Shown one piece after another: positions 3,371 through 34,971 of a stretch of 64,000 bases of DNA (its first letter is position 1; every line of letters starts with the position of its first letter). The stretch lies in assembly GCF_041886205.1 (NCBI RefSeq), contig NZ_CP169031.1; one strand, written 5' to 3'. The stretch is from Escherichia coli. GTDB lineage: Bacteria > Pseudomonadota > Gammaproteobacteria > Enterobacterales > Enterobacteriaceae. Made by a program: the position numbers and the translations under genes. The notes under the pieces were generated by a model, which was given only the letters and a program-made list of their open reading frames with translations, did no database searches and was not told the origin of the DNA.

Positions 3371-3700
3371 GTGCTTGACACACAGGAATTAGCTCCAGTT
3401 GCTATTGCGCTCCTGCTTTCAGTAATTGGTGGGATAGGCACGTTCCTGATGGATGTCCGAGACGGTCGCCAGTCTGGCAATTTGTTGGGATTGGTTACGG
3501 AGATCTTTGTTGCAGTGACAGCTGGCGCGGTGGCGTACCTATTGGGGCAACACGAGGGCTGGGAGTTATCAATTACGTACTTAATGGTAACGATAGCCAG
3601 CAATAACGGTCATGAGGTGATTTCAGGGATGAAACGAGTGAATATCGATAGCATTCTGAATGTTCTTACAAGTTTGGTGAAAAAGGGAGGCGGGAAATGA
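3371..3700 (+). CDS. lydA: Holin (P1 LydA-like)
   Basis: 109 aa, GTG start preceded by GGAGGG; hydrophobic N-terminus (VAIALLLSVIGGIGTFLMD) typical of holins; first gene of lydA-lydB-hdf-darA cluster as in P1. Confidence 0.7.
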   Translation: MLDTQELAPVAIALLLSVIGGIGTFLMDVRDGRQSGNLLGLVTEIFVAVTAGAVAYLLGQHEGWELSITYLMVTIASNNGHEVISGMKRVNIDSILNVLTSLVKKGGGK

Positions 3701-4140
3701 TTGGCTGGGGTGTATGCGTTCTTGCGTTAGCCTTAGCCGATCGCTATTTGCTAAAACGCAAGGACATCACGCATTTAGAACTTGGTGATGTGGAAATTAA
3801 ACCGGGTTTCATCCGGGTGCCGTTCAAATACCGGTCTAAATTCCCGTTTTTGCGCGGCGCAACGGTCAGATATTGGATCCGCGATGTTCAGAAGCCAACG
3901 ACAGTGATTGAAGGCGAACAACGTTGTCTGACGTCGGCTGAACAGGGCGAAAACAGTGAATGGTTGTACATACCCACTGAATATATGGGTAAAGGAGAAC
4001 GGCTGTGGCATTTCAACGTCATGGTTACGCATGGCGACTCGTTCATTAACCCGTTGTATCGGATTTTCCCTGTTACTCAGCAAATCCGCAGAAGTTACGT
4101 AATAAATCTCGCACAGGATGTGTCAGATGACGAAAAATAA
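3697..4140 (+). CDS. lydB: Antiholin-like protein (P1 LydB-like)
   Basis: 147 aa, start overlaps lydA stop (translational coupling); position matches P1 lydB. Confidence 0.6.
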   Translation: MIGWGVCVLALALADRYLLKRKDITHLELGDVEIKPGFIRVPFKYRSKFPFLRGATVRYWIRDVQKPTTVIEGEQRCLTSAEQGENSEWLYIPTEYMGKGERLWHFNVMVTHGDSFINPLYRIFPVTQQIRRSYVINLAQDVSDDEK

Positions 4141-4729
4141 GTATGCAACGGTCGATTTTGACCAGGTTAATGAAAAGGGGCTGAAATCCCTTATCGCGGC
4201 GATCAATAAAACCGGTGTTACGGTAATTGAGGTTGACTCCAGCAACCGCGCAACAACGAAAGATGGCGTTAAAGTTAAAACCGCAAAGCTGGTTCTTAAC
4301 GACGGACAAATTCTTGCCATACAGGTAAACGATACTGGCGATATATCGTCTGTGAGGCTGAATGGAAAAGCTATTCCTAACGCTCAGTCGCCGGATATCA
4401 AGACGCTTGGTACCGTCATGGGGCAAGCGGCCCGCAAAAACTCCGCAAAATTCCAGAAATCACTGATCGCCAAAGCGAAACGTGTTGCCAATCCGGTAGA
4501 CAAGAAACCGGCAGTAAAATCCAACTTTCAGCGCCTGCAAGAGGCAAAACAGCGGAATGCTCAGGTGGTTGCCGCTTATAAATCAGCGCAGAACTCGGTG
4601 TCTTTCAATCAACAGCAGATCACTGATTTGCGGGCGAAGCTGGATAAGGAGACAGGCCGACTCAATAACGAAAAGGCCCGAAATGGCGAACTCAAACGCC
4701 GTCTTAAGCAACTGAAAGCAGGAAATTAA
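4127..4729 (+). CDS. hdf: Hdf (homologue of DarA fragment), Dar antirestriction/capsid morphogenesis
   Basis: 200 aa from second ATG (track ORF starts 4118); shares motif KNSAKFQ and basic coiled-coil region with the DarA encoded immediately downstream. Confidence 0.6.
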   Translation: MTKNKYATVDFDQVNEKGLKSLIAAINKTGVTVIEVDSSNRATTKDGVKVKTAKLVLNDGQILAIQVNDTGDISSVRLNGKAIPNAQSPDIKTLGTVMGQAARKNSAKFQKSLIAKAKRVANPVDKKPAVKSNFQRLQEAKQRNAQVVAAYKSAQNSVSFNQQQITDLRAKLDKETGRLNNEKARNGELKRRLKQLKAGN

Positions 4730-32963: not shown

Positions 32964-33033
32964 CCTGTCACCGACTGATTAGCCCATGTCAACTAATCAA
33001 CGTGGAATATAATACCCTCTATTAAAGAAATAG

Positions 33034-33050
33034 CAATACATTAGAGCAAT
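33034..33050 (-). promoter_or_regulatory. C1 operator-like site upstream of lpa
   Basis: CAATACATTAGAGCAAT, 14/17 match. Confidence 0.5.
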
Positions 33051-33051
33051 T

Positions 33052-34086
33052 TTATCTAACGCTCGACGAGTGACTTGTGATAGCGCCGACTCCAAGCGCG
33101 TAATCAAAGAACAATCGTTGATGCATCGCCAGCCTACCGTGCGTCTTCTCCCAATTATCGCGGTCACGCTCAATATCACGCTGGCATGACTGGCACAGAG
33201 GAATTGCGTAAATGTCATGCGCGCATAATCGACTATGACGAACGATATAAGGCGTAATGTGAGCGCCAGCTCCACACCCACAGCATGGACGGGAAGCAAC
33301 AAAGTCCATGTACTCAGGTAATTTTAGCGATTGCAGTTTTGGTATTTTGAAATGCGCCATGCCATGGTCGGAGTCAACATCCACAGGGCATACTTTTGCA
33401 CGCATCGGCGCGGCGCGTTCTTCCATCATCTGAACATATGCTGTAGCGCGATCGTCATACGGGCGAATATCCGCCTCTTTCAGAGGTCCGCTATCCTGCG
33501 TTGCGGCTTTCATCTTATTTATTGATATACGGCAAACTTCTTCCGGCATCAGGTGCATCATGTTGCGCATGAAAGCCCACCAGCACAGTTCCTGAATACT
33601 TAAATCATGGCCATCTGAAAGCCCCATTTCCTGACGGGCGACATCCAGTATCCAGTTAACGCGATTATTATGCAGCGTTTCTTTCAGCTCATTAAAACCA
33701 CGCATCCGGTAATGGTTATCGTGATGCCAGCACAACAACACCGCGCTATTGTCTCGTTCTGCGTGGACAATATGGTTGTCACACCAGCTACGATCTGCGG
33801 CCTGGCATTGTCCCTCTTTCCTGCGCAACCACGCCACCAGCGCGTCAATTCCACCAATACGGCGAAACAGTTCATCGCTGTTAAAAAACGGCTGCAACGC
33901 CTCATTTGTTGCCATGGTTTGCTCGGTAACAACGAGGCCGTCTTCCATGTGCTCGATTAACTCACGCGGCACCGGCTCCATAATAAATTTACGGCCAGCC
34001 TCCACCAGCTTTCTGACCTCCTGATCCACTTTGAACGTGGCGAGGCCAAGCTCTTTCTGTACAAAGGGAGCAATTACGGCTTTCAC
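33052..34086 (-). CDS. pap: Cys/His-rich protein (P1 pap position)
   Basis: 344 aa with several Cys/His clusters ([21 protein letters not shown]); name by synteny only. Confidence 0.45.
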
Positions 34087-34113
34087 ATCACACCTTTCAT
34101 CACTGATTGGGCT

Positions 34114-34293
34114 TTATCTGCTGCCCGGCATTCTCTGTTTAAGCACAACCATTTCCTGACGGCATAACACAGCAATAGCGGTCCTGGCACCAATTTGCTT
34201 ACCAACCAGGTATTGCTTTACCTTGCGGCGACTCACGCCATCAAGAAGCATCTTTAACGCTTCACGGGACAATTTGTTGTATTTGCGTGCCAT
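34114..34293 (-). CDS. Small basic HTH-like protein translationally coupled to doc
   Basis: 59 aa (MARKYNKLSREALKMLLDGVSRRKVKQYLVGKQIG...); ATG 4 nt after doc stop with GGAG 7 nt upstream. Confidence 0.3.
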   Translation of the reverse strand: MARKYNKLSREALKMLLDGVSRRKVKQYLVGKQIGARTAIAVLCRQEMVVLKQRMPGSR

Positions 34294-34297
34294 TAAT

Positions 34298-34678
34298 CTA
34301 CTCCGCGGAACCATACAATCTACGTAACGTGTCGGCGACAGAAGATACAGATATCTCTCCGGTCGCAGCCCCTACGGTAAGGTCTGCCAGTTCAGGTGAA
34401 TCAAATACCTGCACCCCGTTACGGCGTAGAAATAACAGCGCACTGTTTAGCGCGGTACGCTTATTGGCATCATTGAATATATGCCCTCTCGCTGTAGCCA
34501 CCAGGTAGGTGGCGGAGACTTCGAAAAGGTCGGTGATCTCTTCGTAGGCAACTCTGGCCTGAACTCTCCCGATAATGGCCTCTGCCCTACCCGGATCTGA
34601 CATTCCCGGCAGGCCGCCGTAGCGGTTTATATTCGCATCATGAAGCGCAATAAGTTCTTCCGGTGATATATGCCTCAT
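34298..34678 (-). CDS. doc: Doc toxin (Fic-family kinase)
   Basis: 126 aa [39 protein letters not shown]...[13 protein letters not shown] (Fic-like motif); start overlaps phd stop. Confidence 0.9.
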
Positions 34679-34899
34679 TATCGGTTAACCAGTTCCTTGT
34701 TGGTGGAGTCCAGGGTGTCAAACAGGGATGCAAATTCAGCATCCAGCGCCGCTTTTTTGTAGGCTTCGAAAGTAGCCTTGCTGACAATTACTGCTGGCTC
34801 ACGGCCTCTGCGGGTGATTTCAACCTCTTCCCCGGCTTCAACATTGTTGAGCACTTCAGAAAGGTTGCCGCGCGCGGTACGGAAGTTAATGGATTGCAT
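34678..34899 (-). CDS. phd: Phd antitoxin
   Basis: 73 aa from ATG 34899: [56 protein letters not shown]... Confidence 0.9.
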
Positions 34900-34971
34900 A
34901 AACACCTCGTGTACTCATTATGTGTACACAATTATAAACTTCACAGGCATAAAGCACCAGCACTTTGCAGC

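Follow-up and report, generated by a model that had tools for sequence, protein, structure and literature searches.

The open reading frame behind doc in a P1-like phage-plasmid is pdcA, probably a translationally coupled accessory passenger of the addiction operon

Introduction

Type II toxin-antitoxin systems with three components include paaR-paaA-parE of E. coli O157:H7, omega-epsilon-zeta, and pasABC of pTF-FC2. There, the third gene is an integral member of the module, with a defined role in regulation or neutralisation; in pasABC it also lies downstream of the toxin gene. The paaR three-component systems are treated in PMC7167474. The arrangement phd-doc-pdcA resembles all of these in that a small extra protein is encoded in a toxin-antitoxin operon. 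Unlike in the three-component systems, the pair persists without pdcA in close relatives, pdcA occurs without the pair, and its product belongs to no recognisable DNA-binding family. Across relatives, third gene and toxin-antitoxin pair do not behave as one module.

Phage morons and other accessory genes expressed in lysogens, which occupy variable slots of temperate phage genomes, offer another comparison. Likewise, pdcA is small, occupies differing slots in different phages, and has recombination breakpoints at both ends. In P1 it follows doc; in a Yersinia enterocolitica prophage it is flanked by Rz/LysC and the terminase region. Classical morons have their own promoter and terminator, whereas pdcA of P1-like elements appears to borrow the transcription and translation signals of the gene upstream.

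The original phd-doc fragment of Lehnherr et al. from 1993 was reportedly sufficient for stabilisation, and later regulatory work on phd-doc needed only Phd and Doc. The regulation of the phd-doc promoter has been reviewed, and Phd and Doc alone are described as giving repression and addiction (PMC3920265). Here we analyse the open reading frame (ORF) directly behind doc in the window, by which we mean the whole stretch of 64,000 nucleotides of Escherichia coli DNA.

Results

Locus and gene order

The genes phd, doc, pdcA, and pdcB were all read on the minus strand of the window, an orientation that the preliminary description had left unstated. The features of the locus are as follows.

34678..34899, minus strand: phd antitoxin gene, first cistron (Pfam PhdYeFM_antitox, E 3.1e-13)
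34298..34678, minus strand: doc toxin gene, second cistron, 126 aa (Pfam Fic/DOC, E 2e-9)
34312..34314, minus strand: alternative upstream in-frame ATG of pdcA, used in the P1 reference annotation (66 aa)
34301..34304, minus strand: GGAG, Shine-Dalgarno (SD) sequence for pdcA, within the final two sense codons of doc and 7 nt from the ATG
34300-34298, minus strand: doc stop codon TAG (sequence)
34297-34294, minus strand: doc-pdcA spacer ATTA, 4 nt (sequence)
34114..34293, minus strand: pdcA, third cistron, 59 aa, including the TAA stop (identity to P1 PdcA, phrog_3345, pN/pS, AlphaFold2)
34087..34113, minus strand: pdcA-pdcB spacer, 27 nt, with AAGGTG before the GTG start of pdcB (sequence)
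33052..34086, minus strand: pdcB, fourth cistron, 344-aa DUF968 protein (Pfam DUF968, E 5.9e-48; phrog_96 'HNH endonuclease', E 2.8e-124)
33009..33036, minus strand: promoter-like site just 3' of pdcB (consensus scan: TTGCTA, 16 nt, TATTAT), at the position of P1 Plpa

The mechanical ORF of phd starts with GTG at 34905, and the 73-aa form of the P1 record starts with ATG at 34899; in that record phd has 222 nt and overlaps doc by 1 nt. Doc is annotated in P1, P7, and D6, and the 344-aa DUF968 gene is named pdcB in the P1 record. A UmuD'-like gene, humD, lies upstream of phd. According to the ORF map and the aligned P1 and P7 annotations, the order humD-phd-doc-pdcA-pdcB-lpa matches that of P1, where pdcA stands between doc and pdcB and has lpa-pacA-pacB further downstream. 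The P1 record places the operator Olpa and the promoter Plpa (the C1 operator/promoter of lpa) directly 3' of pdcB, and the promoter-like site at 33009..33036 is the downstream boundary of the phd-doc-pdcA-pdcB unit.

On the minus strand, the junction of doc and pdcA reads ...TAT GGT TCC GCG GAG TAG ATTA ATG GCA CGC AAA..., with the pdcA start codon at 34293-34291 and its TAA at 34116-34114. A preliminary description of the locus had reported a doc stop codon followed by a 4-nt gap, an ATG, and GGAG 7 nt upstream, which the minus-strand sequence from 34304 to 34291 bears out. The ORF of 34293..34114 is likewise basic and 59 aa long, as described there.

Identity of the ORF

The ORF behind doc is pdcA ('post-doc' gene A) of the P1-like phage-plasmid and an already known gene. 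The preliminary description knew of no third cistron in the classical phd-doc operon; the gene is listed as pdcA in the P1 reference genome, where it has been annotated since 2004 (AF234172, 'unknown protein function'; protein AAQ14076.1, P1_gp106), and as fdc in the P7 record AF503408. The 59 residues encoded in the window showed 100% protein identity to P1 PdcA in a tblastn comparison with the P1 records. The 2.4-kb region humD-phd-doc-pdcA-pdcB had 97.5-97.8% DNA identity to P1, P7, and other P1-like phage-plasmids. Furthermore, the profile phrog_3345 matched PdcA with an E-value of 8.5e-44 and covered residues 1-59 of 59, and dozens of 59-aa clusters carry the NCBI label 'PdcA protein'. 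Position and junction sequence of P1 PdcA and P7 Fdc are the same as in the window. Apart from a start placed 21 nt further upstream in the P1 and P7 records (66 aa), there is no substantive difference.

In a CRISPRi study of P1 (PMC10695390), pdcA was among three genes left without a test, as they lack a PAM site. A table in the same study lists pdcA as non-essential and credits this to another paper (Gonzales et al. 2022), the main text of which does not mention pdcA. Our literature search returned no experimental detection or expression data for pdcA.

Start codon

Translation from the ATG at 34293, which corresponds to P1 position 88652, yields a 59-aa PdcA, MARKYNKLSREALKMLLDGVSRRKVKQYLVGKQIGARTAIAVLCRQEMVVLKQRMPGSR. 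An in-frame ATG at 34314 gives the 66-aa form of the P1 and P7 references, with a 17-nt overlap with doc. The comparison of the two starts favours the ATG at 34293, and the one at 34314 is probably not used. GGAG stands at good spacing before the former; no purine-rich SD precedes the latter. At 34307 a C/T polymorphism is common; it leaves the Doc residue unaltered and turns Pro into Leu in the seven-residue extension of PdcA. A P1-like contig with a different upstream gene (L016) has no ATG at the position equivalent to 34314, yet CTGCGGAGTAAATTAATG is kept. Additionally, the Yersinia homologues, the PGAP calls, and the D6 record all begin at the start position of the 59-aa form. The P1 and P7 reference records therefore probably start pdcA/fdc seven codons too early.

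Evidence for coding

Within 3.5 kb of the window the ORF listing holds 41 ORFs that reach 30 aa or more, so that an ORF of 59 aa is weak evidence alone and the coding status rests on comparison with other sequences. For this comparison, 80 IMG/VR loci with 64 distinct haplotypes were retrieved with Doc, and hence without bias for PdcA. All 80 carried an intact pdcA. Among the 64 haplotypes, 14 synonymous and 16 non-synonymous variants were found in pdcA. The resulting pN/pS was 0.33 in the annotated frame; the two alternative frames gave 0.78 and 0.62. Synonymous changes exceeded the proportion of synonymous sites (binomial p = 0.0026); this test draws on 30 variants and a shallow comparative sample, as most pdcA copies are at least 95% identical. 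The same set is unbiased for phd too, and gave a pN/pS of 0.12 for this gene; the constraint on pdcA is weaker than that on phd or doc. The pdcA substitutions fit purifying selection in this frame. A pN/pS of 0.10 from loci picked by PdcA similarity was set aside, the sample being biased toward conserved protein.

Distant homologues were sought first with HMMER, exhaustively across 1.8 billion representatives, and then with a profile search. The HMMER search gave one true distant relative, P0102 of Yersinia mollaretii, with an E-value of 2e-14 against PdcA in pairwise BLASTP. Another match, P0100, was an 870-aa repetitive eukaryote-like protein and was discarded as false. With P0104 of Y. enterocolitica and P0103 of a metagenomic assembly, three homologues outside the P1 lineage are at hand, all of 61-62 aa, 40-47% identical to PdcA, and collinear over the full length. 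Conservation at P1-like doc loci had been proposed as a check in the preliminary description; the check speaks for the gene, both in the Doc-selected loci and in these homologues, which keep the frame. That frame and length are kept at such identities in unrelated contexts is the strongest evidence for a protein product, and we consider pdcA a real protein-coding gene that is probably translated.

Among the pdcA copies in the databases, a minority carry frameshifts or fusions to other reading frames (P0056, P0058, P0094, P0099, P0071, and P0084), with one or two sequences each; they may be sequencing errors or real pseudogenes.

Expression architecture and coupling

The layout expected for coupling is present, with the doc TAG, 4 nt, the pdcA ATG, and the SD inside doc. 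GGAGTAG with the 4-nt spacer was found in 79 of the 80 Doc-selected loci, and AGAG in one. The junction (SD, stop codon, 4 nt, ATG) is also retained behind a different upstream gene in two loci (L016 and L071). The proposal that a cistron is packed behind doc in a coupling-type layout, with its SD in the last codons of doc, was thus sound.

A consensus scan of the minus strand from doc to the end of pdcB gave no promoter-like or terminator-like site, and the P1 record annotates no promoter or terminator between Pphd and Plpa; as the scan missed the annotated Pphd, its sensitivity is limited and an internal promoter is possible. The 111-nt RNA of the junction folds less stably than shuffled controls (z = +2.0). 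An Rfam search gave no match, and no stable RNA structure was predicted at the doc/pdcA junction. From these predictions, the start site of pdcA is probably accessible.

Judged by its sequence layout, pdcA is probably translationally coupled to doc. The layout permits reinitiation by ribosomes that terminate on doc, without requiring it, and since the start region is predicted to be unstructured, independent initiation is possible as well. In the mechanism that we propose, pdcA would be transcribed from the Phd/Doc-autoregulated promoter upstream of phd, and translation from the ATG at 34293 would fall to ribosomes coming straight from termination at the doc stop codon, or would begin by direct initiation at the unstructured start. 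The level of PdcA would then track that of the addiction operon, and the levels of PdcA and PdcB would follow the derepression of the phd promoter when Doc exceeds Phd.

Protein properties

PdcA has a calculated pI of 11.3 and a mass of 6.8 kDa, with 15 Lys+Arg against 3 Asp+Glu. An AlphaFold2 model from a 14-sequence alignment comprises three helices, at residues 2-17, 22-31, and 36-54, with a mean pLDDT of 86.8. Pfam contained no family at E <= 1 for the 59-aa protein, NCBIfam gave chance-level matches only, and a sequence and profile search of the PDB gave nothing meaningful. Curated helix-turn-helix (HTH) family profiles in these three resources did not match PdcA. Foldseek searches of the PDB and of viral models with the PdcA model found nothing with an E-value below 0.1. 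The fold neighbours, among them small-terminase and other DNA-binding helical domains, are weak and lie in the range where any three-helix bundle scores.

The description of the ORF as 'HTH-like' is consequently reasonable for the shape, as three helices are predicted, but does not amount to a family assignment. No HTH family matches, and the fold searches draw no distinction between an HTH and an ordinary three-helix bundle. The best structural neighbour of the model was the eukaryotic ribosomal protein eL36, with a Foldseek E-value above 1, a sequence identity of 13% (11-22% across the matched chains), and no Pfam match. This protein is absent from bacteria, and its likeness to PdcA is one of shape, not of membership. 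From charge, size, and generic fold alone, PdcA most likely binds nucleic acid.

Distribution with and without phd-doc

Both doc and pdcA were present in 1155 of the 1240 plasmid records that matched a doc+pdcA query (about 93%), so a doc-tied function is possible in P1-like elements. In total, pdcA was found in 1161 plasmid records, conjugative IncF plasmids included, and in 1096 of 5426 complete E. coli genomes (about 20%), nearly always on plasmids. Phage D6 has acquired the block phd-doc-pdcA as a unit and lacks pdcB. Similarly, two plasmid loci (L004, pKP151_NDM1, and L005, pBone4IncF; 3395-4567) carry phd-doc-pdcA with a 119-aa N-terminal fragment of pdcB. Both are conjugative or multi-replicon IncF plasmids, one of which resides in Klebsiella, and in both the block adjoins a type I restriction-modification (hsd) locus. 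Its presence on IncF plasmids means that the block spreads beyond P1-like phage-plasmids.

The pair and pdcA also occur apart. Two other phage-plasmids (L175 and L177) carry doc alleles of about 90% identity that are directly followed by a convergent gene and lack pdcA. In L176, which has a phd-doc allele of about 90% identity, pdcA is reduced to a remnant of 25 codons. Conversely, in the IMG/VR P1-like contig L016 (1920-3180) phd-doc is replaced by a LuxR/GerE-type regulator of 128 aa and a 74-aa ORF, and pdcA-pdcB remain. The 74-aa ORF is ribbon-helix-helix-like by weak NikA-like and RHH_10 matches. Homology to P1 resumes at CTGCGGAGTA(A/G)ATTAATG, and the new upstream gene shares the SD, the stop codon, and the 4-nt junction.

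In a further arrangement (L071:2321-3180 and L069:1-626), a 91-aa ORF without a family match stands between doc and pdcA. The last 10 residues of this ORF and about 37 nt duplicate the usual 3' end of doc, and the doc copy that precedes the ORF ends differently (C-terminus ...LRELYGSKT). The 3' end of doc looks like a recombination joint. Breakpoints were seen at both ends of pdcA. On the upstream side they fall at the SD (L016) or about 37 nt ahead (L069 and L071); on the downstream side they coincide with the stop codon, in D6-like loci and in some of the other Doc-selected ones.

None of the three distant homologues stands beside doc. The gene of P0104 (47% identity) is a stand-alone gene in a lambdoid Y. 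enterocolitica prophage (L178:2582-8189), between Rz/LysC and a phrog_1924 gene that is followed by ParB-like, small terminase (TerS), and large terminase (TerL) genes. In both P1 and this prophage, the pdcA-type gene lies about 2 kb upstream of packaging genes. On the Y. mollaretii chromosome (L086:3000-7200), the gene of P0102 has its own ribosome-binding site and lies between umuDC and a GNAT acetyltransferase gene that itself follows a divergent HTH_3/HTH_35 pair of genes. At a contig end (L094:284-1385), 99 nt separate the gene of P0103 from the prlF-yhaV toxin-antitoxin genes downstream of it, and P0103 is the only distant homologue found adjoining a toxin-antitoxin pair.

A link of pdcA to the SOS response or umuD was considered, given that P1 has humD upstream of the gene and Y. 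mollaretii has umuDC on its downstream side. It was rejected, because the sole LexA box of the latter locus (a perfect CTGT-N8-ACAG) sits after the pdcA-like gene and directly before umuD, and because other strains have no umuDC at this site.

Discussion

We consider it likely that pdcA is a real third cistron of the phd-doc operon, namely a probably coupled accessory passenger that encodes a small basic protein, presumably one that binds nucleic acid. PdcA would be the product of a 'moron'-type gene that uses the operon for its expression in lysogens, and would not be a working part of post-segregational killing. The passenger role is suggested by the occurrence of doc without pdcA (L175, L177, and the remnant in L176), of pdcA without phd-doc (L016), and of pdcA without pdcB (D6). 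The breakpoints flanking pdcA and the unrelated contexts of its homologues mark it as an exchangeable accessory gene.

It is highly improbable that pdcA is untranslated and open only through the recent common descent of its copies, or through another role of the DNA or RNA. Copies that are for the most part at least 95% identical have had little time to acquire stop codons, a pN/pS of 0.33 is merely moderate, a few database versions are frameshifted (P0056, P0058, P0094, and P0099), and the literature search retrieved no experimental detection of PdcA. Against this, homologues of 40-47% identity retain length and frame in genomic settings that are unrelated, the excess of synonymous changes is confined to the pdcA frame, the SD is well spaced and conserved, neither an Rfam family nor a stable RNA structure was found, and the AlphaFold2 model is confident. 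If PdcA is made, it might be a third component of the addiction module that tunes the repression of Pphd, or the activity or stability of Doc or Phd, like PasC, PaaR, or omega. Three-component systems of this kind exist (PMC7167474), pdcA follows doc by 4 nt with coupling features, the two genes go together in the plasmid records (1155/1240) and the Doc-selected viral loci (80/80), phd-doc-pdcA has travelled as one block to D6 and, next to hsd genes, to IncF plasmids, and P0103 is encoded close to prlF-yhaV. Such a role is nevertheless distinctly unlikely: phd-doc alleles of about 90% identity have no pdcA or 25 codons of it, pdcA-pdcB persists where phd-doc has been replaced, the 91-aa ORF can separate doc from pdcA, and the homologues of Y. 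mollaretii and Y. enterocolitica stand alone with no doc nearby. Published models of regulation and addiction require only Phd and Doc (PMC3920265), and PdcA matches no DNA-binding family. The regulator or modulator of the addiction module envisaged in the preliminary description therefore conflicts with the distribution of the gene (L175, L177, L176, L016, and the three distant homologues), while within P1 itself PdcA may have a modulatory effect.

A partnership of PdcA with PdcB, a DUF968/HNH-type nuclease, in which PdcA would have a DNA-recognition or regulatory role, possibly linked to the packaging genes lpa, pacA, and pacB, also appears unlikely. The two genes stay joined in L016, full-length pdcB follows pdcA in 70 of the 80 Doc-selected loci, and on IncF plasmids the 119-aa N-terminal part of pdcB still follows pdcA. 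Likewise, the gene of the Y. enterocolitica homologue lies about 2 kb upstream of terminase genes, and small-terminase and other DNA-binding helical domains are among the weak fold neighbours. These fold matches, however, score as any three-helix bundle does, D6 carries pdcA without pdcB, and no DUF968 protein occurs in any of the Yersinia contexts; the protein of 239 aa encoded next to the Y. enterocolitica homologue shows no relationship to PdcB (BLASTP E 1.2). Moreover, knockdown of pdcB leaves the plating of P1 unaffected (efficiency of plating 0.68), and the gene is classed as non-essential (PMC10695390). PdcA could also be conceived as an output of the addiction operon, because the promoter from which pdcA is probably expressed is derepressed once Doc is in excess over Phd. 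It would then be a small basic nucleic-acid- or ribosome-binding protein that is raised when the toxin-antitoxin balance is disturbed, for instance during plasmid loss or phage attack, and would alter the outcome of the translation block by Doc or act on incoming DNA. Both the likeness to eL36 in shape and the connection with an EF-Tu-targeting toxin are compatible with this idea and no specific support for it; we regard it as very unlikely.

As pdcA is already part of the P1 reference annotation and is named automatically by NCBI, the discovery value of the accessory passenger described here is small. What it adds is a probable correction of the start codon, for a gene carried by about 20% of the complete E. 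coli genomes. Constructs or deletions designated 'phd-doc' may or may not include pdcA, which is relevant when results are compared, because pdcA is probably expressed from the Phd/Doc-controlled promoter.

In the aligned loci, pdcB showed more amino-acid variation than its neighbours, with 71 non-synonymous variants and a pN/pS of 0.25. Its in-frame length variants include a 9-nt insertion in the Cys-rich C-terminal part, and the sequence ...CGCGAAGAGARITPY of L071 differs from that of the window.
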